From NCBI GenBank assembly GCA_965205015.1, contig OZ242029.1:1184001-1248000 (forward strand): a stretch of DNA of 64,000 nt, given 5' to 3'. The notes below the pieces were generated by a model. The model searched no databases. It was not told the origin of the DNA and saw nothing but the letters and a program-made list of their open reading frames with translations. Positions 3,561 to 35,833 of the stretch are shown here, one piece after another. Position 1 is the first letter of the stretch. Every line of letters starts with the position of its first letter. Source of the stretch: Candidatus Poribacteria bacterium. Its GTDB lineage: Bacteria > Poribacteria > WGA-4E > WGA-3G. The position numbers were made by a program, and so were the translations under genes.

Positions 3561-4688
3561 TTAAAAAGCTTCCTGTGCAGCCGTAACGCCAGCACCGAGT
3601 GGGACCTCATATCCGATGGAGCAGAGACCTCGCTCGAAGGCAGAGATAGCAACAATCGCATCGTTTTCATTCATCCATCCGAGATGTGCGATCCGGACGA
3701 TTTTCCCACTTAACTGACTCTGACCCCCCGCATAGGTGACACCGTATGTGTCGCGCATCAGATTGATAAACGCCTTTCCATCAATTTCCGCTGGTAAGCG
3801 AATAGAGGTCAAAGTATTCGCAGGAGACGCCGCGAAGAGGGAAAGACCGAGTGCTTTAACCGCATTTCGGGTCGCGACTGCCAAGCGATTGTGGCGGGCA
3901 ATAGTCCTGCGGATACCCTCTACAGAGATGCGATGCAGCGCACATTGAAGCGCCGTCAGGAGTGTTATTGCCGGTGTGTAGGGCACAGAACCCTCCAAAC
4001 CGCTTTGGTGTGCTTTTCGGAAGTCGAGATAGTATTTCGGAAGGTCAGAACACGCAACAGCATCCCAGGCACGCTGATTGAGCGCAGCGAACGCCAGACC
4101 GGGCGGGGTCATCAAGCCTTTTTGGGAGCAGGACACAACAACGTCCACACCCCAACTATCCATCTGTAAATCGTCGGCAGCGAGCGCGCTGACGGCATCA
4201 ACAATCAAAAGTGTCGGACGCACTCGCGTTAGACTCGCCAGTGCCTCAATGTCGTGCAAAGCACCCGTCGATGTCTCACAGAGCGTTGCAAAAACCGCTT
4301 TTACATCGGGATGCTCCGTTAGGAGTGCTTCAACTGCCTGGGGTTCAACAGAATGCCCCCATGTCACGTCAATCGGGATCACTTCGATCCCATAAGCGAT
4401 ACAGATGTCGCTCCAGCGTTCCCCGAATTTACCGCTCCGGATGACAATGACTTTGTCTTCACGCGCTAAAAGATTCGCGACTGCGCCCTCCATCGCACCG
4501 GTTCCGGACGACGTTAGAAAGAGGACATCATTCTCAGTTTGGAAAACGTGTTTGAGTTTTTCAAGAACGTCTTTAATGAGCGTTACAGCGGCACCGCTGC
4601 GGTGATAATCGATCGGTTGCGCCATCGCCAATAGGGCTTCGGGCGGAATTGGCGTGGGACCGGGTGTAAAAAGCAATTTCTTTTTCAT
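3561..4688 (-). CDS. Class V PLP aminotransferase (alanine-glyoxylate/serine-pyruvate family)
   Basis: LFTPGPT, SSGTGAME, ETSTG, VDAVS, SQKGLMTPPGL, RIAHLG. Confidence 0.92.
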   Translation of the reverse strand: MKKKLLFTPGPTPIPPEALLAMAQPIDYHRSGAAVTLIKDVLEKLKHVFQTENDVLFLTSSGTGAMEGAVANLLAREDKVIVIRSGKFGERWSDICIAYGIEVIPIDVTWGHSVEPQAVEALLTEHPDVKAVFATLCETSTGALHDIEALASLTRVRPTLLIVDAVSALAADDLQMDSWGVDVVVSCSQKGLMTPPGLAFAALNQRAWDAVACSDLPKYYLDFRKAHQSGLEGSVPYTPAITLLTALQCALHRISVEGIRRTIARHNRLAVATRNAVKALGLSLFAASPANTLTSIRLPAEIDGKAFINLMRDTYGVTYAGGQSQLSGKIVRIAHLGWMNENDAIVAISAFERGLCSIGYEVPLGAGVTAAQEAF

Positions 4689-25864: not shown

Positions 25865-26350
25865 TCAAGGGTTGACAATCTGCTGTTGTTTGAGCGTTTC
25901 AACTTCGCGCGTGAGGACTTCAATCTGCTTTTCTTGTGCGTTGTCCGTGATGCTCCGCCACCCTAAAAAGACTGTCAGAATCGCTAATGGGAGTCCTATG
26001 ATAGCGATGAGTGCAAGAAGGATACCTATTAACCATGCGACTGGGGTTTTCAAAGTGTCGACTTGTTGGTTAATGTATTCTTTCATCCGAGTTTCGGAGA
26101 TGGTGATCTCGCTTTTGACTTCCGAAATGCTTTCTTTCATCCGAGTTTCGGAGGCGGCAATGCTTTCTTTCATCCGAGTTTCGGAGACGATAATCCTTTC
26201 TTTCATCCGAGTTTCGGAGACGGCGATCTCGCTTTTGACTTCCTCTTTGACAATCAAGCGGATTTTGTCCAAATCGGCATCGGTTAGTGCACCGAGTGCC
26301 GGCATCGCGATGACACAAAAGACGATTGCGGAGAGCAAAACAGTTTTCAT
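25865..26350 (-). CDS. Exported coiled-coil membrane protein, LTDADLxKIRLIV family (paralogue 3)
   Basis: Signal peptide, SETRMKE 33-bp repeats, TM helix, ETLKQQQIVNP tail; TTGACA-17-TTTACT upstream. Confidence 0.82.
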   Translation of the reverse strand: MKTVLLSAIVFCVIAMPALGALTDADLDKIRLIVKEEVKSEIAVSETRMKERIIVSETRMKESIAASETRMKESISEVKSEITISETRMKEYINQQVDTLKTPVAWLIGILLALIAIIGLPLAILTVFLGWRSITDNAQEKQIEVLTREVETLKQQQIVNP

Positions 26351-26437
26351 GGGATAGTTCCTTTCCTTTGTATGTAGTAAATCATATCTGTTTCCGGGTG
26401 TCAAGACAAAAGTTATGCCCGACTCCGGAAAGGGTGT

Positions 26438-27690
26438 TCTGCAAACAAAAAAGGGTCGGTACCGAGGTACCCACCCTTTTTTGTGGTTAAGGTTAGTTCA
26501 AACAAATTTTATCCCTGAAATAACCTTTTTGTTGCTACTACTCATGAGATGTCTTCAACTCACCCCAGAGGGTTGTTGCTTTGCCCGCTGCGCCGACATG
26601 CCCTTTGAGGCGTATGCCGCGCGTCAGGGTCTGACGGTTTCCGTCAAGAGAAACATCTTCAATTTGGTAGTAGTATACGACGTTAGGTTGAGCAGTTGTA
26701 TCCGTGTAAGTATAGAACTGCTTCTCACTGGTAGTACCTGCGCCCGGAACCATTGTGGCGTTGATGACTTTGAACTCACCGTTGCGTTGCTGTGAACGCT
26801 TGATAAAGAATCCAGCGTTATTCAGCTCGGATTGCGTCGACCAGGTAATCACGGCTTGCCCCGTCGCTTTATCGCGTGCGGGACGGAAGTGTGAGAGTTC
26901 GACAGGCAACGCACCACCAGTACGGAAGCCGGGTGTACCGACATCATTCGCTGCACCGTAGTAGTTTGCCCGACGGATATGCGTCGGATGTGCGAAAGCC
27001 GTATCGGCTGCGCGTCTCCAAGTGGTCATCATCTTGCCGTCTTCAGGTTCTGCGGGTCCGACAGAGACTTGAACGTGGGCACGAATGAGAGAGGAACGGG
27101 CTTCGCCCTCTTCGCCCATCGGTAATGCCCAAGCGGCTGCGCCATCAGCACCGAGGTTGCCCGCCATATCGGTAGCGGCTGCGTGTGCGGCCTTGGCTTT
27201 CAAGTCAGCGGCTTTGGCTGCGGCTTTTTCAGCAGCGGTTGCCGTTGCTGCGACTTTGGTCGCCGTGGGGGCTGGTGGTGCAAGCACGACTTCAAATGCC
27301 ATCTCACTCAACAGCGAATAGCGACGCTTCGTCACGCCCGCCAGAATTAACTCCGTCTGACCTGATTCCCAGAGGTTGAGGACATAGTCGGCTGAGAGTC
27401 CACCGAGATCGTTGCGGCCCATTTCGGTGACGACTAACAAGGTCGAGGGTATCGTGTTCTGTCCACTCCGCGTGATCATCGTCCCATCGGGGATTGTGAA
27501 CGTGATAGAACCACCGACGGATACATCGGCATCCGCTGCGGCGTTATTCACCGTCAACGTCCATCCACTCAAGTTTACATCCTCGGTACGGGAACCGTTA
27601 GAGATTTCAAGCCACTGCGGCAATCCGTTGCCCCTGTCAACCATAATCTCACTGACGTAGATAGCACCCGCATCTGGGACGGTTCCGGTG
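26438..27690. repeat. ~1.25-kb inverted repeat arm (partner ~33208-34458)
   Basis: Near-identical C-terminal coding region, trailer and terminator of the two paralogues. Confidence 0.9.
26445..26484. terminator. Intrinsic terminator of left surface-protein gene
   Basis: A6-GGGTCGGTACCGAGGTACCCACCC-T6 hairpin; inverted identical copy at 34412-34451. Confidence 0.85.
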
Positions 27691-29540
27691 CCTGCTTTTT
27701 TCGCAGCAGCATCGGCAGCAGCTTTCGCAGCAGCATCGGCTTTCGCTTTTTCGGCAGCGGCGGCAGCGGCGATTTCAGCAGGGGTCACGAGACGGGCGGC
27801 ACCTGGACTCCCGATGTGGACACCCGGAGCGTCCGCGTCAAAGTTCAAACTCGGGGGTGTCGACTGCATCCAAGAACTTGCCACCGTGCCATCGGCGACT
27901 GTTCCTGTCGCATCCATCACACGATACATGGAGATGATGGACTGTGTGGGTACGATTGCGCCTAAGGCTGCGGCTTGTTCCTCTTTACCCGACCGACCTG
28001 ATTGCCCTTTGCCTGCGAGCGACCAATAGGTACCTGCCGCATCAACGGTGCCGACTCGGTCGTGAACAGCCGTTAAGGCAGGGAGGGAAGCGAGTTCGCT
28101 CGGATTATAGAAGATCAGCGTGACAGATTCATAAGCAGCCGTAGCTCCATCATCGTCCACAGTCGCAAAACCGGCACCTGGATTATACAACTCAATCCAC
28201 TGGCTATTGCTGGCAGGCTTCAAACTTGCATCGGAACCCCACATAATCTCGGTGATCTTCAAAGGTTGCGGACCGACAACATCAATCACACCACCATTGG
28301 AGAGGAACGTCTCCAAGTTCGGGAGACCTGTTTGGTCGTGAACGACGTTATATTTCTGTTCGGGCACTGTCCGCTCGTGTGGCTTCGGAGCTTCCTTAAT
28401 TTCACCAGGCGGGGTGTGGACGGAGGAACCCGCTTTGTTCACAGTAAGGACTAAGTAACCACCACCGGGGATGTATTTTTCTTTCGGCACTTTGAACGCA
28501 ACCCCTGCGGCTTTCGGGGTCTTTGGATCCGCCGTTTTGGTCTTGACTGTCAGTTTATCCCTACCCTCAACGAGAGCACTGTCAGCATCGCGGTTATACA
28601 TCTCCTGTGCTACGGTGGGTGCCGGTCTCTCCATGCCAGCAAAATTCTTAACTTTGACGGTAACTGTCTTTTCGCCCGGCTTTGTTCCGATAGTAACGAG
28701 ATACAGATGCAACATTCCATCGCGCCAAGTATCTAATGTATCAAGACGAACTGCGGTGTCAAATTCGGTAGTACGACTAACGAGACCAGCATCATCTGAC
28801 ATTGTAGCTCCCGCTGGTGATGCTAACTTAAGAACAGAATTAACAGTTGCGTTATCTCCGACATCAATTAGATCTTTGGTGAGACCGCCTTTCGCATCTT
28901 CACTCAATAGAACGTGAACCATGAATTCAGCAGAAGTGACTATTACAAAAGGCTCACCGACTCTTGCGATTTTCAAAACATCTGGACCGTTAGTGGCATG
29001 ACCGAACGTTGCGTTACCTGTTTCAGCTGTGTCAGGGTCGGCCAGACCATCTTCTACCAAGAAAGTAACTGTTATCTCAGCTTTTGCGTTGGCATCATCA
29101 TCATCACCAACTGTGGGATCTGCTGCACCAACTTTGCCTTGTGGTATCTGCAAATACAATTTTCTAATAGCGGCATCAGGAGTCATCGTTATTGTGTAAT
29201 TCTTACCATCCGCTGGTAGGCCTGCAGATATTGTAGCCGTCGGTTTTGTCTGAATTACATTATTTTCATCATAGGCTTGCATGACAAGATCAGCTGCTGC
29301 AAATTCTTCACCAGTGGCGACGGCATTGGCTGGCACGCTCGTGACAATTTGTCCAAACGTCACATTAAATACAATCTCTGCACCAGCCTCCCGTTGCTCT
29401 CCATCAGCATGACTTATATCATGACCGCCTACTGAGATTGCGGCACTGAAATCACCCGCCATTGCAGGTGTTACCACGAAAGCGAGAGCGAGTATTGTAA
29501 TTAAACTTGTCAAGGAAAATGCCCATTTCTTAGACATCAT
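26538..29540 (-). CDS. Large exported surface protein with two lamin-tail-like domains and C-terminal LPVELSHF/Fn3-like domain (paralogue L)
   Basis: Signal peptide; ITEIMW..QWIELYN and VSEIM..QWLEISN LTD-like motifs; ALPVELSHF...YYYQIEDVSLDG; GKATTLWGELK tail. Confidence 0.85.
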   Translation of the reverse strand: MMSKKWAFSLTSLITILALAFVVTPAMAGDFSAAISVGGHDISHADGEQREAGAEIVFNVTFGQIVTSVPANAVATGEEFAAADLVMQAYDENNVIQTKPTATISAGLPADGKNYTITMTPDAAIRKLYLQIPQGKVGAADPTVGDDDDANAKAEITVTFLVEDGLADPDTAETGNATFGHATNGPDVLKIARVGEPFVIVTSAEFMVHVLLSEDAKGGLTKDLIDVGDNATVNSVLKLASPAGATMSDDAGLVSRTTEFDTAVRLDTLDTWRDGMLHLYLVTIGTKPGEKTVTVKVKNFAGMERPAPTVAQEMYNRDADSALVEGRDKLTVKTKTADPKTPKAAGVAFKVPKEKYIPGGGYLVLTVNKAGSSVHTPPGEIKEAPKPHERTVPEQKYNVVHDQTGLPNLETFLSNGGVIDVVGPQPLKITEIMWGSDASLKPASNSQWIELYNPGAGFATVDDDGATAAYESVTLIFYNPSELASLPALTAVHDRVGTVDAAGTYWSLAGKGQSGRSGKEEQAAALGAIVPTQSIISMYRVMDATGTVADGTVASSWMQSTPPSLNFDADAPGVHIGSPGAARLVTPAEIAAAAAAEKAKADAAAKAAADAAAKKAGTGTVPDAGAIYVSEIMVDRGNGLPQWLEISNGSRTEDVNLSGWTLTVNNAAADADVSVGGSITFTIPDGTMITRSGQNTIPSTLLVVTEMGRNDLGGLSADYVLNLWESGQTELILAGVTKRRYSLLSEMAFEVVLAPPAPTATKVAATATAAEKAAAKAADLKAKAAHAAATDMAGNLGADGAAAWALPMGEEGEARSSLIRAHVQVSVGPAEPEDGKMMTTWRRAADTAFAHPTHIRRANYYGAANDVGTPGFRTGGALPVELSHFRPARDKATGQAVITWSTQSELNNAGFFIKRSQQRNGEFKVINATMVPGAGTTSEKQFYTYTDTTAQPNVVYYYQIEDVSLDGNRQTLTRGIRLKGHVGAAGKATTLWGELKTSHE

Positions 29541-29603
29541 TCGTTCTATCTCCTTGTTCTTATGGAATAAAATTTTTGAAACATATAACCTAAAACCTTT
29601 TAT

Positions 29604-29688
29604 AGTTGTCGGTTGTCGGTTGTCGGTTGTCAGTTGAAGAGGATAAATTCTTTTATGACTGAAAACTGAAAACCGAAAACTGAAAACT
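29604..29688. repeat. Heptamer tandem repeats (GGTTGTC)n/(ACTGAAA)n
   Basis: Visible; similar heptamer tracts at ~52628-52745, 58601-58620 and 61262-61290. Confidence 0.8.
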
Positions 29689-29709
29689 ATTTCAAACGAA
29701 GAACGGACT

Positions 29710-29756
29710 CAGGGATTGTAAATCCAGTTCTGTTTTTGAACTTAACCTTGTACACA
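29710..29756. repeat. 47-bp perfect inverted leader block (partner 31183-31229)
   Basis: Exact reverse-complement identity; a second identical block pairs 29541-29573 with 31293-31325. Confidence 0.95.
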
Positions 29757-29890
29757 TAATGTTATATTGGATTATGTGTTTTTAAGGGTCTTAACCGTTT
29801 TCAACGCAGAATTTATCAGAATATCGCAGTTTTCATCGTTTTCAACGCGTAATTCATCAAAATATCGCGTTTCAACCCTTTATAGTAATA

Positions 29891-29919
29891 ATTCTACCCT
29901 ATTAAACGCTGTTTGTCAA
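29891..29919 (-). promoter_or_regulatory. Strong sigma70-like promoter for paralogue L
   Basis: TTGACA-17-TAGAAT with AT-rich upstream region. Confidence 0.75.
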
Positions 29920-30341
29920 ATTAAAAATACAAAAAAATGCACTTTTTTGCGAAATAAACGCATAAAAACGCATAATTCAACAAAAAAGTGCGAAATTCAA
30001 CAAAAAAGTGTAAAATAGGACCAGTGATTTTTGTGATTTTTGTGATTTTTGTGATTTACCGGCGATACTGATGAAATTTCGGCGAATCATAGACCATCAG
30101 GAAAATCCCAGAAATCGCAATTCAGACCAGTGATTTTTGTGATAAGCTATGATGTTCTGTGATGCCAGAATCTCAGTTGATCATAGAACATCAAGTAAAT
30201 CAGAGTTCAGACATTTAGGTGGCTTAGCTGGTGGGGGCTGCCGGGGTAGTAAAATCCGATCCATGATAACGCCTGATGCTGAAAGTTGCGCTAATCATAG
30301 AACATCAGGTAAATCACAAAAATCACAGTACAGAAGGAGGG

Positions 30342-30384
30342 CGGACAACGGGAGAATTCCCTACACTCTCCCGTTATCCTTTTA
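30342..30384 (+). terminator. Possible intrinsic terminator
   Basis: GGACAACGGGAG...CTCCCGTTATCC followed by TTTT. Confidence 0.5.
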
Positions 30385-30588
30385 GTTTGATTAAATGGAG
30401 GAGATTAGCGTCGTCCTCAGGACGGGGTAAGTTTAACCTCTGTCCAAGAGGTTACTTTAATTATCCACTATTTGCCGATAAAAGTCAATTAAAATTAAAA
30501 ATTCCCGCTCTCGATCCTTTATGCCCCCAGGGGCATTCAAGGGAGTGGAGCGGGTTAACGGACAACGGACAACTGAGGACGAACCACT

Positions 30589-31005
30589 ATGAACCCAGAC
30601 ATCTATCTCTCCGTGGCGCAAGCCTCCGACCTACTGGGCATCTCGCCGGAAACGCTCTATAAGGAGATTCAAGCCGGGCATCTTACGGCGGTAGAGAACC
30701 CAGACCAGAAACGCAAACATAAGGTCATTGCTATTAACGAACTCTCGCGTTTATACGGCAACATCTACATCCCTGACGGGTATCTCGAATACTCTGGAGA
30801 CAAGTCCGTCGACTTTGTTCGAGTTGCCCTCCGCCAAGAGAACGAGAGGCTCCGTAAGGCGTTGGAAGCAACCCAGATACGGGAGCAGGATCTCAATGCC
30901 CAACTCACCGCCGCCCTCGAAAACCACAAAACGCTTATCAAGGCACACGCGGATCTCACCAAAACCATCGATAATCTCACCGCCGTGCTGGATAAAATGA
31001 CATAG
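30589..31005 (+). CDS. Excisionase-like (HTH_17/MerR-type) DNA-binding protein with coiled coil
   Basis: YLSVAQASDLLGISPETLYKEIQAGHL winged HTH; C-terminal heptads; GAGG RBS. Confidence 0.8.
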   Translation: MNPDIYLSVAQASDLLGISPETLYKEIQAGHLTAVENPDQKRKHKVIAINELSRLYGNIYIPDGYLEYSGDKSVDFVRVALRQENERLRKALEATQIREQDLNAQLTAALENHKTLIKAHADLTKTIDNLTAVLDKMT

Positions 31006-31325
31006 GTCCTTCTGATTTTGTAAAATTTTTGATAATTTTGTAAAAAATCCACATATCTTATAGCGGGGCTCTATGGTATTACAATTTTTTAAAATACCGT
31101 CCTAATCCGTCCCTACAGGCGCGGTTTTTCACCTGAGGCCACACGTCCAAAACTCCTTCGTTCTTTGCCGAATTTAACTTTTTGTGTACAAGGTTAAGTT
31201 CAAAAACAGAACTGGATTTACAATCCCTGGATCCGTTCTTATTTTTCAATGGTTTTAGGTAAGTAGGGGTTGGGGCTCCCAACCCATCAAACATTTTATT
31301 CCATAAGAACAAGGAGATAGAACGA

Positions 31326-34300
31326 ATGTTGTCAAAGAAAATGGCAGTTTCGTTAACAAGTCTAATCACTATATTTGCCCTGGCATCTCTGCCTGTATCG
31401 GCATTTGATGTGAAATTCGATGCCCATGATATCAGTCATGCTGGCGATATCCAGCTCGAAAGGGCAGCGTCAGTAGTGGTATATGTCAACTTCGGGAAGA
31501 CGGTAACACTTGCGGATGTCAAAGCAGCATTTGGTTATTCCGCCGCTACTGCTGCGAGTACAGATGCAGTCGCAGCAGGTGGAAAGATTGATATTCTCAA
31601 TTATCATGGAGCTGTAATTGATAGTAATGCTACCGGTTCTGAGAATACCGTTGTGATTGCAGATCGCGAAGTCGATGATCGTTTGGTACTAGATGATGTT
31701 AATCAGATACAGTCGGGTAAGGACTATACGATTACGATTACCCTTGATGCTGATACGCAGCTCCCTGCTACTTCTGGTGACAATGCAGGGGTTTTTGATA
31801 AGAATGAGCATGCCTACAAGCTGCGTTTATTCCTTCCCAAAGATGCTCTGATTGAAGCAGACCGTAACGCCGGGACCAAAAATAATGTAGGATTCCATGA
31901 CAAAATATTTTTGGTAGGTGCCGAACCAGCTGCCATTGAAGATCGCGCTCCGTCGCCACGTAGCATTGCGCTTGCCCCGGGTGTGTTAATACCGGATGCT
32001 GGTTTCACAGGCGACACGTTCGATATCATTGTCACATTGACTGAGCAGCCGAAAGAGAACAAGCTCACTGCCGCAGATCACTTCGATGTTGCTGAAGGAA
32101 CTGCATCTGATGGTGTATATTTGGGTGAAATAGCGGCTCCTGCGGATGCCGCAACCGGCGATGATACGCCCCGATTAGCAAGTGGACGTAACGGTATGGA
32201 TGAGCGATACCTCGTCACGCTTACACCGGCAGCTAAAGACGCCAACTTGGTTTTCAAGTTAAAAACTTTTGGAGACCAAGAGATTTATACGTACGATGAC
32301 GACAAGAGCGACATAACAGGTAGAGGACCAAACGAATGGGATCCACCTGTCAGTGAACTTGATCGGAAAGAGGGTGAAGATAAAATAACGGTCAAGATCA
32401 AGAAGCAAACAACCGGTCCAGCAAAAACCGCGGGTGTGAAGTTCGGTTTACCGAAAGAAAAATACATCCCTGCGGGTGGCTACTTAATCGTTGCAGAGGA
32501 CATAACGGGCTCCGCTATCCACAAGACGCCTGGTGAAATTAAGGAAGCTCCGAAACCGCACGAACGGACACCTGCCGAGATGATGTATAACGTCATTGAC
32601 GATGGCGATCTCCCGAACCTTGAGACCTTCCTCTCTAATGGCGGTGTAATTGGTGTGATGGGACCACAACCTTTGATGATTACCGAGATCATGTGGGGTT
32701 CGGATGCAAGTTTGGACGATCCCGGCAAGAGCCAATGGATTGAGCTGTATAATCCCGGTGACGGGTATCAGACACAGGATGGCGATAACACCACGTATCT
32801 GGTTTTCTACGGACCGGGTGAAACCCCCGCAACAGGGATTCATGACAGCGTTGGAACCCTCGATCCAGTAGCTGGCTATTGGTCGCTCGCAGGTAAAGGT
32901 CAAAATGGTCGATCCGCTGAAAGGATCCTTGGGGAAGAAGCAGCGGTCGCAACCGCATCGATCGTCTCCATGTATCGTCTCATAGATGCGTCTGGGACAT
33001 TGGCAAATGGGCGCATGAAAGATTCCTGGATGCAGTCGAGTCCTCCGAGCATGAACTTTGAAGCGAATGCCCCGGGTGTTCACATAGGGACACCAGGCGC
33101 AATGACCGATATGACGGCGTTGCGAATGGCTGAAGCAGCCAAAGCCAAAGAGCAAGCCGATGCTGAAGCCAAAATGAAAGCCGATGCTGAAGCCAAAGCC
33201 GCAGCGACGGGCACTGTCCCACAGGCGGGTGCTATCTACGTCAGTGAGATTATGGTTGACAGGGGCAACGGATTGCCACAATGGCTTGAAATCTCTAACG
33301 GTTCCCGCACCGAGGATGTAAACTTGAGTGGATGGACGTTGACGGTGAATAACGCCGCAGCGGATGCCGATGTATCCGTCGGTGGCTCTATCACGTTCAC
33401 AATCCCCGATGGGACGATGCTCACGCGGAGTGGACAGAACACGATACCCTCGACCTTGTTAGTCGTCACCGAAGCCGGACGCAACGATCTCGGTGGACTC
33501 TCAGCCGATCATGTGCTCAACCTCTGGGAATCGGGTCAGACGGAATTGATCCTCGCAGGTGTGACGAAGCGTCGGTATTCGCTGTTGAGTGAGATGGCGT
33601 TTGAAGTTGTGCTGGCACCGCCAGCCCCGACAGCAATGAAGGTCGCTGCCACCGCAACGGCAAAGGAAAAAGCGGATGCCAAAGCCGCTGACCTGAAAGC
33701 CAAGGCCGCACACGCAGCCGCTACCGATATGGCGGGCAACCTCGGTGCCGATGGCGCAGCCGCTTGGGCATTACCGATGGGCGAAGACGGCGCACCCCGT
33801 TCCTCTCTCATTCGTGCCCACGTTCAAGTCTCTGTGGGACCCGCAGAACCTGAAGACGGCAAGATGATGGACACCTGGAGACTCGCCTCTATGACGAGTT
33901 TCGCACACCCCACGCATATCCGTCGGGCGAACTACTACGGTGCGGCGAACGATGTCGGCACACCCGGCTACCGTGCTGGCGGCGCACTGCCTGTCGAACT
34001 CTCACACTTCCGTCCCGCACGCGATAAAGCAACGGGTCAAGTCGTGATTGCTTGGTCGACGCAATCCGAGCTGAATAACGCTGGATTCTTTATCAAGCGT
34101 TCACAGCAACGAAATGGCGAGTTCAAAGTCATCAACGCCACAATGGTTCCGGGCGCAGGTACTACCAGTGAGAAGCAGTTCTACACCTACACGGATACAA
34201 CTGCTCAACCTAACGTCGTATACTACTACCAAATTGAAGATGTATCACTTGACGGAAACCGTCAGACCCTGACACGCGGCATACGCCTCAAAGGGCATGT

Positions 34301-34358
34301 CGGCGCAGCGGGCAAAGCCACCACCCTCTGGGGTGAGTTGAAGGCATCTCATGAGTAG
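31326..34358 (+). CDS. Large exported surface protein with lamin-tail-like domains (paralogue R)
   Basis: Same architecture as 26538-29540; AAGGAG RBS. Confidence 0.85.
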   Translation: MLSKKMAVSLTSLITIFALASLPVSAFDVKFDAHDISHAGDIQLERAASVVVYVNFGKTVTLADVKAAFGYSAATAASTDAVAAGGKIDILNYHGAVIDSNATGSENTVVIADREVDDRLVLDDVNQIQSGKDYTITITLDADTQLPATSGDNAGVFDKNEHAYKLRLFLPKDALIEADRNAGTKNNVGFHDKIFLVGAEPAAIEDRAPSPRSIALAPGVLIPDAGFTGDTFDIIVTLTEQPKENKLTAADHFDVAEGTASDGVYLGEIAAPADAATGDDTPRLASGRNGMDERYLVTLTPAAKDANLVFKLKTFGDQEIYTYDDDKSDITGRGPNEWDPPVSELDRKEGEDKITVKIKKQTTGPAKTAGVKFGLPKEKYIPAGGYLIVAEDITGSAIHKTPGEIKEAPKPHERTPAEMMYNVIDDGDLPNLETFLSNGGVIGVMGPQPLMITEIMWGSDASLDDPGKSQWIELYNPGDGYQTQDGDNTTYLVFYGPGETPATGIHDSVGTLDPVAGYWSLAGKGQNGRSAERILGEEAAVATASIVSMYRLIDASGTLANGRMKDSWMQSSPPSMNFEANAPGVHIGTPGAMTDMTALRMAEAAKAKEQADAEAKMKADAEAKAAATGTVPQAGAIYVSEIMVDRGNGLPQWLEISNGSRTEDVNLSGWTLTVNNAAADADVSVGGSITFTIPDGTMLTRSGQNTIPSTLLVVTEAGRNDLGGLSADHVLNLWESGQTELILAGVTKRRYSLLSEMAFEVVLAPPAPTAMKVAATATAKEKADAKAADLKAKAAHAAATDMAGNLGADGAAAWALPMGEDGAPRSSLIRAHVQVSVGPAEPEDGKMMDTWRLASMTSFAHPTHIRRANYYGAANDVGTPGYRAGGALPVELSHFRPARDKATGQVVIAWSTQSELNNAGFFIKRSQQRNGEFKVINATMVPGAGTTSEKQFYTYTDTTAQPNVVYYYQIEDVSLDGNRQTLTRGIRLKGHVGAAGKATTLWGELKASHE

Positions 34359-34411
34359 TAGCAACAAAAAGGTTATTTCAGGGATAAAATTTGTTTGAAC
34401 TAACCTTAACC

Positions 34412-34451
34412 ACAAAAAAGGGTGGGTACCTCGGTACCGACCCTTTTTTGT
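34412..34451. terminator. Intrinsic terminator of right surface-protein gene
   Basis: GGGTGGGTACCTCGGTACCGACCC hairpin followed by T-tract. Confidence 0.85.
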
Positions 34452-34614
34452 TTGCAGACCCCTTCCTGCCTGATTCACACAATCCCCCCGATGCCTCCTA
34501 CGCTGCCTCCGCTGGGTCCATCGATTCAGGCAAAAAGAAACGAAGGCGCGGTGAGTGGGCAGGTACAAGACCTAAGGAAACACCCCAGCAAAAACCCCCT
34601 ACAAGATGTCTATT

Positions 34615-34731
34615 TATAGTAAAGTTTAGAATTAATTAGACACTTTAAAGAGGCGAGGATACAATCCTCGCCAGCGGCGGAGAGGATTGTTTCGCTAAGC
34701 AACTGTCTACATATTTTTCGACTTTACTATA
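34615..34731. mobile_element. 117-bp MITE-like element (copy 2)
   Basis: One mismatch to 7541-7657; TA at both ends. Confidence 0.85.
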
Positions 34732-34762: not shown

Positions 34763-35833
34763 TCAAAGGACGTTCCCGGGGTCTGTCAGTGTTCGGGTGA
34801 ATGCGTCAAGACTTTGCGTCCGCATCGCTTCTCGAAGCAAGTGCTTGAGACGTTGTAAATCGTCAATCGCTTCAAGCGGCGGTTTGAGGGTTTCAGCGGT
34901 GTTTGCCTGAAACCGCATATCGAGAAATAGCAGGATGCTCTCGATAGTGGTTTCTTTCGCACCTTGTTCTATGCCTTGTTCTATGCCTTGTTCTATGCCT
35001 TGTTCTATGAGAGCTTCAGCAGCCGTCTGTGCCATGATGGCAACCTCCCTTTCATCTCGACTTTGCTCTTTGACGATGTCTACAAACGCATCCCGCTCAG
35101 CAGCGGAGCGGCGATGAAAAATCAAAAGGATTAAATAGTTGAGTGCCTCCCGCAACTGGGCATCTTGTGTCCCCGCCAAACGACTGATCTCGGAGACCGC
35201 CACTTCTAAGGCTTCACGGAAGGCGGTTTCATCCGCATGCTCCTCTTGAAGCACGCGCAGCAACCAACCGAAAGGATGTCCTGACTCGATCAGCGTCTCC
35301 GCCGTCATCCGTTTTACGTCTAAAAACAGTGTGTCAAACGTAGGGACAAACCGCGCCAGGGCTCTCGGGACATTGAGAATCTCTGTCAACGCCTTCGGCT
35401 CCGTCCACCGATCCGTCCCCGTGTAAAAGACGATCGGTAAGATCGGAGACCACTGCTGTTCACCCGCAGCCCGCGAGTCCAACTGCTGATATTCCGATTC
35501 CCAGATGCGCCCCATGTACATCAACATGCGCAGCCGCATCAACGCCTCCACACTCGATTGATGCTCTATCAGAATACAGATATGCACCGCTTCATCCGAT
35601 GCCGACGCCTGAAACGGAACACGCAGCAAGACATCCGCCTCACGCTCCCGCAACGCTGCCGACAGAAAACTTCGGTTCTGCTGAACACCTCTTTTGAAGT
35701 CAAGAAAACCCACCAACTCCGGGGCGAGAAGTTCTACTAAATATCTTACATAATCTGCATCTTGCAGCAACCGCCGCATACTCCGATCCGGAAAGTGGTA
35801 CACCTTCTCATCAGAACTCACGGGGTTTGACAT
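34763..35833 (-). CDS. Rpn/YhgA-like (PD-(D/E)XK transposase_31 family) nuclease
   Basis: EADVLLRV, LIEHQS, MRLRMLMYM, ILPIVFYTG..W, (EQGI)n tail. Confidence 0.9.
   Translation of the reverse strand: MSNPVSSDEKVYHFPDRSMRRLLQDADYVRYLVELLAPELVGFLDFKRGVQQNRSFLSAALREREADVLLRVPFQASASDEAVHICILIEHQSSVEALMRLRMLMYMGRIWESEYQQLDSRAAGEQQWSPILPIVFYTGTDRWTEPKALTEILNVPRALARFVPTFDTLFLDVKRMTAETLIESGHPFGWLLRVLQEEHADETAFREALEVAVSEISRLAGTQDAQLREALNYLILLIFHRRSAAERDAFVDIVKEQSRDEREVAIMAQTAAEALIEQGIEQGIEQGIEQGAKETTIESILLFLDMRFQANTAETLKPPLEAIDDLQRLKHLLREAMRTQSLDAFTRTLTDPGNVL

Follow-up and report, generated by a model that had tools for sequence, protein, structure and literature searches.

Complementary modules in the 5' and 3' untranslated regions of a large secreted-protein gene family of Candidatus Poribacteria, and their possible pairing in mRNA

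Introduction

Why should the two ends of a bacterial gene carry sequences that are complementary to each other across 3 kb? This question is raised by a stretch of 64,000 nucleotides from a Candidatus Poribacteria genome (contig OZ242029.1, positions 1,184,001 to 1,248,000; hereafter the window), in which two paralogous genes for large, putatively secreted proteins are arranged as a divergent, inverted duplication. An initial annotation of the window reported that the leader of each gene is the imperfect reverse complement of its trailer. It proposed either a long-range leader-trailer helix in the mRNA, comparable to the stems that direct ribosomal RNA (rRNA) processing, or four related DNA recombination sites defining gene cassettes. 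The present analysis indicates that the complementary blocks belong to conserved modules of the predicted 5' and 3' untranslated regions (UTRs), which recur in a protein family. We favour pairing of these modules at the RNA level, either in cis or among paralogous mRNAs, and give this explanation about an even chance of being correct.

To our knowledge, only a handful of bacterial mRNAs are known in which the 5' UTR pairs with the molecule's own 3' UTR, each from a single gene in a cultured Firmicute. In rRNA operons, long leader-trailer helices serve as processing stems and are cut by RNase III. CopA/CopT and RNA I/RNA II are antisense-RNA kissing-loop systems, with separate antisense transcripts from one locus. 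At the DNA level, inverted repeats flank a functional segment in fimS-type switches and integron attC. In Staphylococcus aureus icaR, the Shine-Dalgarno region is masked by base pairing with the 3' UTR, and the resulting duplex is a substrate of RNase III (PMC3868564). For Bacillus subtilis hbs, an abundant and stable mRNA, UTR-UTR pairing is reported to control ribonuclease access (PMC5737220).

Results

Complementary blocks in the leaders and trailers of the window genes

The leader of the right gene contains two blocks, a and b, whose complements a' and b' are found in the trailer; the left gene shows the same arrangement on the opposite strand (Table 1). The coordinates of the initial annotation proved exact. 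Local alignment of the 100-nt leader with the reverse-complemented trailer gave a score of 30, compared with 15.0 +/- 2.4 for mononucleotide shuffles, a weak null (1 of 2000 shuffles reached 30). Recurrence across loci, described below, is a stronger argument than this statistic. At the left gene, the perfect pairing of ATCCCTGA was confirmed as an 8-bp match. Leader b follows the consensus ATCCCTGR, and the A/G difference at its end keeps the pairing, as had been claimed: among 39 leader-trailer combinations the last pair of b is G.U in 21 and A-U in 18. In both paralogues, the two trailer blocks directly precede an intrinsic terminator.

A third block of the initial annotation, TTTTTGTG opposite CACAAAAA, is present at the right gene but is not a general feature. 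Indeed, the left leader has ATTATGTG at this place, and other loci vary there. The distance between a and b is about 20 nt in the leader and about 9 nt in the trailer, a two-fold difference. Such unequal spacing is tolerated by a duplex with an internal loop, but not by a bipartite protein site.

Recurrence of the modules in one protein family

The protein family could be placed in Candidatus Poribacteria. Among the candidates examined, 1853 proteins matched at E <= 0.001 and the sole named match was from Poribacteria; at least 416 relatives were found in Poribacteria reference genomes, and all the loci kept (78/78) came from metagenome-assembled genomes of this phylum. The metagenome scan contributed no more than about 8 further useful loci from Poribacteria; the loci L100-L159 are mostly unrelated proteins that share the C-terminal domain.

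In almost all of 28 full-length homologues, the same leader and trailer were present in the flanking sequence (260 nt before and 130 nt after the gene). Two main versions were distinguished, classes being assigned, and several alignments made, by eye from printed sequences. Class A, the type found in the window, has the a element AAGGTTA(A/G)GTTCAAA, a hairpin loop ..ATCCCTG(G/A) and, in the trailer, ..AAGGTTATTTCAGGGAT..TTTGAACTAACCTT. In class B the leader is shorter (AAGGTTAGTTCAGAATAGATTTCATCCCTGA) and the trailer reads TCAGGGATATTTCTAACTAACCT, its start often being 4 nt past the stop codon. When 80 genes were searched with a strict regular expression, leader and trailer cores were both detected in 37 (L059 and L078 are false leader matches); 3 genes showed just the leader, 19 just the trailer, and 21 had neither core. 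A looser expression retrieved 44 loci with 39 distinct leader/trailer pairs among 160 sources, all from Candidatus Poribacteria; many of these loci are paralogues from few genomes, and locus counts are not counts of independent events. The complementarity is thus conserved among homologues, the point on which the initial annotation had staked its proposal. The proteins whose genes carry the modules are 37-61% identical to the query.

The pattern CAGGGA-N4-25-AACTAACC was matched 28 times in five closed Poribacteria genomes, compared with 0-1 match per genome for a reversed-pattern control. Family genes or their remnants account for 27 of the 28 matches: 22 belong to loci that the protein-similarity searches had retrieved, 2 flank one more full-length homologue (L160), and 3 are at decayed copies (L079, L162) that keep the leader or both leader and trailer. 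The last match (L161) is unrelated. Genome G001 contains 8 matches at 7 loci, and up to seven family genes occur per genome. Because the matches fall at family loci, the elements are a property of this gene family, as opposed to a repeat scattered over the genome. The pattern also matches class B leaders, on the opposite strand, which restates the inverted-repeat relation.

The decayed members L079 (G004:604300-606700) and L162 (about 3600-3960) have kept a class B promoter and leader and a start codon, followed by an early stop. L079 also holds internally deleted gene remnants together with an intact trailer and terminator. In these two members, the UTR modules have outlasted the coding sequence. 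Both b' (TCAGG.A) and a' (AACTAA.C) show no change across 50 distinct trailers, whose adjacent terminator stems vary freely yet stay paired. Class C genes (e.g. L048, L055, L074) have a related leader hairpin and a different trailer, and leader-trailer complementarity could not be shown for them. In Rfam 15, no curated RNA family reached its gathering score (best 21-26 bits vs gathering scores of 41-117).

Predicted transcription unit

Promoters were scored as consensus matches out of 12, and the transcription starts are predictions; among the sequencing runs listed for 31000-34500, four of unspecified kind, none was of RNA. Of 38 leaders, 16 had a match of at least 10/12 in the 300 nt preceding a, including all nine of class B (11-12/12), and none (0/38) had one between a and the start codon. 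The consensus promoters precede a by 100-270 nt, which makes transcription of both arms probable, and the positions of promoters and terminators place the arms probably inside one transcript. A 9/12 promoter-like match inside the right leader (31217-31245) is a caveat to this interpretation. Other candidates for general promoters (a -10 box formed by the a element, TTAAGT-17-TACAAT, TTTACA-17-TATTTT) were rejected, their spacing being variable and their occurrence limited to a minority of loci. An antisense promoter in the trailer was also rejected (spacing too short, no conserved -35).

Some leaders are preceded by short reading frames or repeats. A small helix-turn-helix (HTH) open reading frame (ORF), co-oriented with the family gene, ends 25-60 nt upstream of a in eleven other loci, as read by eye, and from its position this looks like an operon arrangement. 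Its conserved form (about 75-92 aa, ..TVSRWRK..W..FE.ELI..) is unlike HTH_17, was recorded at L010, L023, L026, L028-L030, L032, L038, L060 and L061, and may act as a dedicated regulator or stand first in an operon. In the left 5' UTR, between the predicted promoter and a, there is a 41-nt direct repeat (29788-29868, minus strand; 83% identical) with GTTGAAA(A)CGCGATATTTT-like motifs; similar motifs are present in the matching region of L019, L025 and L033.

Local structures and a second leader element

RNAalifold predicted one conserved hairpin in 38 distinct leaders, with b in its loop. In this hairpin 96.2% of the alignment cells pair, a share that falls to 9-58% on sliding the 3' partner by 1-3 columns. 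One pair is found as G-C (26) or A-U (8), and five of the nine pairs show G.U (e.g. U.G 29 / C-G 4 / U-A 4), with almost no A.C. This bias fits selection on the sense-strand RNA and not on a DNA palindrome, the events being few and the sequences related.

The trailer contains its own partner for a'. This element, a*, is a same-sense mimic of leader a. The predicted a*/a' hairpin has an energy of -11.7 kcal/mol (z -2.2) on the sense strand and of -7.8 kcal/mol (z -0.4) on the antisense strand, and trailer and terminator together fold into two hairpins that make up a compact unit, about 95 nt long (-39.6 kcal/mol, z -5.8). In 14 of the 50 trailers, those of the short class B type, a* is lost, yet a' is invariant there as well. 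Reading these 14 genes by eye, distal leader a/b was found in 10 and was missing in 2, while 2 could not be classed. Among class B genes, distal a/b is missing from all four that have a long trailer (a* present) and is found in at least 10/14 of those with a short one. This alternation of a* and the distal leader in class B suggests that a' needs one partner or the other.

A second leader element, close to the ribosome-binding site (RBS), also complements the trailer. In class A, its predicted interaction with the trailer has an energy of -20 to -23 kcal/mol and z-scores of -3 to -5; in class B, z is about 0 (mononucleotide shuffles, the same weak null as above). The leader hairpin, a* and the RBS-proximal element are structures beyond those of the initial annotation. 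Many 5' UTRs (left leader 29590-29690; L014, L026, L035, L047) have variable insertions between the distal leader and the RBS-proximal element, consisting of heptad repeats (e.g. CGGTTGT x3, CTGAAAA-like, GTTAGCN, CTGACAA) around a central AAGAGG...CCTCTT hairpin. The right gene carries in their place a short GC hairpin (31265-31287).

Predicted leader-trailer duplexes

The distal leader (a to b) and the trailer were predicted to form a duplex of 19-29 bp, interrupted by internal loops, in every pair. The mean energy was -26.2 kcal/mol on sense strands vs -23.6 kcal/mol on antisense strands, and the sense strands paired better in 26/33 combinations. When the whole 5' UTR was co-folded with the whole 3' UTR, which lets local structures compete, five of the six loci retained 21-29 intermolecular pairs, and the energy gained relative to separate folding was -2.6 to -9.0 kcal/mol. 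The partner of the trailer was the proximal element in both window genes and in L012, and distal a/b in L002 and L007. A long-window RNAduplex comparison (300 nt upstream vs 90 nt of trailer, distant subfamilies) gave giant-loop 'interactions' with z near 0 and was dropped.

Duplex folding and covariation were among the checks proposed with the initial annotation. Folding predicted a helix; covariation cannot decide on leader-trailer pairing because the paired positions are nearly invariant. Some changes look compensatory by eye and were not counted as a test: L072 (ATTCC with GGAAT), L070 (ATCTCT, giving U.G with AGGGAT), L073, and L038, whose trailer CTATTCAG is opposite leader CTGAATGG.

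RNase III in related genomes

The catalytic domain of RNase III was not detected in five closed Poribacteria genomes related to the window (G001-G005), using a first-look filter that a divergent enzyme could escape and that was positive in 8-9 of 14 control genomes. The catalytic-domain model PF14622 matched 0/5 Poribacteria genomes and 8/14 controls. TIGR02191 matched in all five genomes, in the part corresponding to the double-stranded RNA-binding domain (dsRBD) only (22-27 bits vs a cut-off of 166). The sole match inspected, in G003, is a 188-aa ORF with a dsRBD and no catalytic domain (L163 825-1391). Because no catalytic domain was found in these related genomes, an RNase III-type cut is unlikely, and processing of the rRNA kind, which the initial annotation had suggested, is disfavoured. 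The five TIGR02191 matches all have class B family loci in their vicinity, at distances from under 1 kb to about 20 kb. If phylum-wide, the absence of the catalytic domain would be unusual.

Organization of the locus

The C-terminal halves of the two paralogues form an inverted repeat of 1312 nt with 92% identity (26438-27749 vs 33147-34458). Trailers and terminators are 100% identical (trailer identity over ~105 nt); the N-terminal halves reach 73-79%, in patches only. This mosaic suggests gene conversion between the inverted copies, i.e. homologous and not site-specific recombination. Gene conversion has no power to explain conservation across genomes at 37-61% protein identity.

The C-terminal ~120 aa (residues about 880-1000; 33960-34358) are nearly invariant across the family and match short stretches in many non-Poribacteria metagenome contigs (L100-L159) with 30-53% identity; no Pfam or NCBIfam model matches them. 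Because of this near-invariance and wide occurrence outside Poribacteria, they are probably a widespread sorting or anchoring domain. Our literature search found no paper linking Poribacteria with the lamin tail domain. A term search of a Poribacteria transcript-profiling paper (PMC5087111) gave no mention of the family genes in the text covered, and its supplements, outside that search, may list expression values.

Other repeats were noted in the window. Upstream of the HTH_17 gene, the intergenic region contains three to four tandem copies of the 9-nt unit GTGATTTTT (30024-30057) and three imperfect direct repeats of 43-58 nt (..ATCATAGAACATCAGGTAAATC..; 30066-30334), with a 20-nt perfect inverted partner at 30308-30327. 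An ORF on the minus strand without Pfam match (25865-26404) contains four copies of a 33/54-nt tandem repeat (..CTTTCATCCGAGTTTCGGAGA..) at 26071-26243. The Transposase_31 ORF has three perfect 12-nt tandem repeats near its 3' end (34962-35000).

Table 1. Position of the features discussed in the text, numbered from the first nucleotide of the window.
Feature	Position	Strand	Remarks
Right leader arm a, AAGGTTAAGTTCAAA	31190-31204	+	complementary to trailer a'
Right leader arm b, ATCCCTGG	31223-31230	+	in hairpin loop; complementary to trailer b'
Right leader block TTTTTGTG	31179-31186	+	partner CACAAAAA, about 34410-34418
Right leader hairpin	31208-31239	+	5' arm 31208-31219, loop 31220-31230 carrying b, 3' arm 31231-31239
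Right RBS-proximal leader element, GGTTTTAGGTAAGT ... CAAACATTTTATTCC	31251-31302	+	split by inserted GC hairpin 31265-31287; complements trailer
Shine-Dalgarno AAGGAG, right gene	31311-31316	+	
Right trailer a*, AAGGTTATTTCA	34369-34380	+	same-sense mimic of leader a
Right trailer b', TCAGGGAT	34378-34385	+	complementary to leader b
Right trailer a', TTTGAACTAACCTT	34394-34407	+	complementary to leader a; pairs locally with a*
Right intrinsic terminator	34412-34451	+	palindromic; A-tract before, T-tract after
Right best predicted promoter, ATGACA-18-TAAAAT	30997-31026	+	10/12; overlaps end of HTH gene
Weaker right -10, TACAAT	31080-31085	+	matches TTTACA-17-TACAAT of L001, L009, L024
Right paralogue	31326-34358	+	1010 aa; N-terminal signal-peptide-like start; Lamin Tail Domain (PF00932, 1.9e-12)
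Left distal leader	29700-29749	-	hairpin 29731-29700, b in loop
Left leader a	29749-29735	-	complementary to left trailer a'
Left leader b, ATCCCTGA	29716-29709	-	perfect 8-bp match to b'
Left RBS-proximal leader element	29564-29597	-	complements trailer
Left trailer a' / b' / a*	26489-26502 / 26511-26518 / 26516-26527 (plus-strand coordinates)	-	identical to right trailer
Left intrinsic terminator	26445-26484	-	
Left predicted promoter, TTGACA-17-TAGAAT	29919-29891	-	11/12; about 140 nt upstream of a; best in 8.3-kb region
Left paralogue	26538-29540	-	1000 aa; signal-peptide-like start; Lamin Tail Domain (PF00932, 1.3e-13)
HTH_17 / excisionase-family DNA-binding ORF	30589-31005	+	small; between the paralogues; adjoins 8/80 family loci
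YhgA-like Transposase_31 ORF	34763-35833	-	directly downstream of right gene

Discussion

Pairing of the 5' and 3' UTR modules in RNA

The leader and trailer modules are conserved, confined to one gene family and complementary. Several features of the sequences argue that this complementarity would be used at the RNA level: the G.U bias of the leader hairpin, the preference of both the duplex and the trailer hairpin for the sense strand, and the unequal spacing of a and b. Moreover, a' is invariant in trailers without a*, and in class B the presence of a* is associated with the absence of the distal leader. Of the two proposals of the initial annotation, the long-range mRNA helix is thus favoured: its arms are conserved, they are located between predicted promoters and the terminator, and b is displayed on a G.U-biased hairpin.

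Transcription would start at a promoter 100-270 nt upstream of a and end at the terminator just after a'. In this transcript, b (AUCCCUG) would be displayed in the loop of the conserved 5' UTR hairpin, and b' (CAGGGAU) in or at the loop of the a*/a' hairpin, or single-stranded in trailers without a*. A loop-loop contact between b and b' could nucleate pairing, which would then spread to a and a', or in class A to the RBS-proximal element, giving the interrupted duplex of 19-29 bp. This duplex would join both ends of one mRNA in cis, or paralogous mRNAs in trans. It would probably shield AU-rich single-stranded UTR segments from endonucleases, couple termination to re-initiation and translation control, or both. 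Such effects would serve the mRNA of an abundant secreted protein.

A more specific form, to which we give a slim chance, is that class A genes produce a closed-loop mRNA, whose helix would hold the stop codon and the RBS at one and the same end, and terminating ribosomes would be returned to the start. In this geometry, the 3' UTR segment from about 20 nt past the stop codon would pair with the leader element ending 9 nt before the Shine-Dalgarno sequence. The distal hairpin, with b in its loop, and a* could be competing partners that turn the loop on and off. In trans, interchangeable modules could coordinate which paralogues are expressed.

Several observations weigh against pairing of leader and trailer. 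Trailers are present without a distal leader at L004, L011, L013, L018, L020 and L021. In class A, a' already has a strong local partner in a* (12 bp, one mismatch), which would be expected to be kinetically favoured. In 6/9 class B leaders, a promoter-like CTGAAA-17-GATAAT (9/12; -35 just after b) is found downstream of a/b; at a looser threshold, the CTGAAA -35 is present in 9/9, with the -10 variants GATAAT, GAGAAT, GATACT and GACAAT. If this were a working promoter, a and b would be outside the RNA. The leader hairpins of the window are unremarkable in single-sequence folding (z -0.7 and -1.1), and in class B the antisense strands pair slightly better than the sense strands. Co-folding chose the proximal and not the distal element in 3/6 loci, and the real partner may thus be another than the arm seen in the initial annotation. 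With the same b-b' core in 37/39 combinations, there is essentially no compensatory evidence, and variants of leader a comprise one G.U type (L026, L030) but also A.C (L023) and G.G (L061). Finally, comparing the duplex energies of cognate and non-cognate pairs gave no signal of co-evolution. The own trailer ranked 2-8 of 16 for class A leaders and 10-16 of 16 for class B leaders and the class-B-like L072. Non-cognate pairs are as stable as cognate ones, and the modules are nearly interchangeable among paralogues.

Alternative explanations

The modules might act only through local structures, namely the leader hairpin, the a*/a' hairpin and the terminator, or through one RNA-binding protein recognizing the shared module GGTTA.GTTCA and its complement, with no long-range pairing. 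The complementarity would then be a by-product of an old inverted duplication of the leader into the trailer, and the copies would have been kept for local roles such as 3'-end protection or protein binding. We regard this main rival as somewhat doubtful. It is consistent with a trailer that holds both a same-sense (a*) and an antisense (a') copy and folds locally with a z-score below that of its antisense strand, with the two same-sense copies, distal and proximal, of class A leaders, and with the resemblance of every trailer variant to a shortened reverse complement of a class-B-type leader segment. The invariance of leader-trailer pairs and the lack of a co-evolution signal in the cognate test also suit it. 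However, b and b', the most invariant parts of both UTRs, are complementary and not same-sense, and a shared single-strand binding protein therefore fails to explain them. A purely local role also does not account for a' being invariant in the 14/50 trailers without a*, nor for the distribution of distal a/b in class B (0/4 long-trailer genes vs at least 10/14 short-trailer genes).

A function of the elements in DNA is unlikely, whether as recombination or inversion sites, as terminal repeats of a mobile unit, or as HTH operators at both gene ends for repression by looping. Such a function would agree with the inverted orientation and with the four related copies around two paralogues. The excisionase-family HTH_17 ORF between the paralogues, the different small HTH ORF upstream elsewhere, and the YhgA-like Transposase_31 ORF, with homologues (tblastn) at 5/80 loci (the window, L014, L030, L033, L072), could be seen in the same light. 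Moreover, the leader hairpin is also a DNA palindrome, and the paralogue mosaic (3' 1.3 kb at 92%, trailers at 100%) shows recombination acting at the locus. Nevertheless, no integrase, invertase or other site-specific recombinase was found among the eight neighbouring ORFs scanned (six against Pfam, four against NCBIfam, two in both), the neighbours being a sulfatase, an unknown ORF, HTH_17, the YhgA-like Transposase_31, an FGE/GldK-like ORF and a TafC-like ORF. Conservation does not stop at the arms: it reaches the promoter on the upstream side and includes the terminator on the downstream side, so that the arms do not mark the ends of a mobile unit. Similarly, the terminal repeats of transposons or miniature inverted-repeat transposable elements are not recognized here, since paralogue similarity passes both arms and pattern matches are confined to the family. 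In the five closed genomes, the elements are never found away from the family or its remnants (27/28 matches). The two-fold difference in a-b spacing and the G.U variation without A.C in the leader hairpin would not be expected of bipartite sites or of a DNA palindrome, and the predicted transcription unit encloses the arms, more than 100 nt downstream of its promoters, an odd position for operators. Short assembled contigs from four runs compared with 29400-34700, which break at repeats and cannot show absence, contain no joint 31190-34400; the opposite-strand joints 29582/31246 and 29709/31229 reflect only the two inverted paralogous leaders. Altogether, the four recombination sites of the initial annotation are not supported.

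Finally, it is very improbable that the trailer, processed from the mRNA or transcribed together with the terminator, is a small RNA derived from the 3' UTR that cross-regulates the family by acting in trans on the leaders of all paralogues: the near-interchangeable modules of up to seven genes per genome and the compact trailer-terminator unit would suit it, but the sense-strand promoter scan found no promoter near the stop codon, there is no sign of processing, and nothing separates trans action from pairing in cis.

Relation to known systems

Pairing of the UTR modules would probably make these mRNAs new members of the group that pair their own 5' and 3' UTRs, of the icaR and hbs kind. The likeness to icaR is in the pairing of 5' and 3' UTR within one mRNA and in the control of translation and stability proposed for both, here as a prediction. 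In contrast to icaR, the Shine-Dalgarno sequence is left uncovered: upstream of it, 107 nt separate it from the distal arm and 9 nt from the end of the proximal element, and neither 31190-31230 nor the proximal element (ending at 31302) covers AAGGAG at 31311-31316. The C-rich strand is in the leader and not in the trailer, the RNase III catalytic domain was not found in the five genomes related to the window, and the feature is common to a whole paralogous family known from sequence alone. The hbs mRNA comes from a single housekeeping gene of a Firmicute with RNase Y and J1, and its sequence, length and architecture are unrelated to those described here. In contrast to icaR and hbs, the present module is bipartite, possibly has two leader partners and occurs in a large paralogous family.

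As in rRNA operons, the helix would be formed from the flanks of a multi-kb RNA and its 19-29 bp compare with the about 20 bp or more of a processing stem, but here the flanked RNA is an mRNA, the helix is broken by internal loops and the RNase III catalytic domain was undetected in 5/5 genomes. The complementary hairpin-loop sequences could nucleate and then extend pairing as in CopA/CopT and RNA I/RNA II, except that both partners would be on the same sense transcript, 3 kb apart. With fimS-type switches and attC, the locus has in common inverted repeats around a functional segment. It differs in that no recombinase is found among the ORFs scanned, the repeats are not at unit ends, the spacing of their sub-sites is unequal and the short contigs showed no inverted junction.

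Significance for the family and its hosts

Even if the proposed pairing is false, the strictly conserved motifs are good annotation markers for the transcription units of this family. If it is true, the family would provide a natural, many-fold replicated system for end-to-end contact of mRNA in stability or translation, in genomes without a detected RNase III catalytic domain. It would be distinct from the known cases in concerning a whole, rapidly diversifying family of large secreted proteins in an uncultured phylum of sponge symbionts, in which the same pair of complementary UTR modules has been kept while the proteins diverged to below 40% identity. The family genes would then be tightly and jointly controlled, which would bear on the surface that the symbiont displays towards its host.

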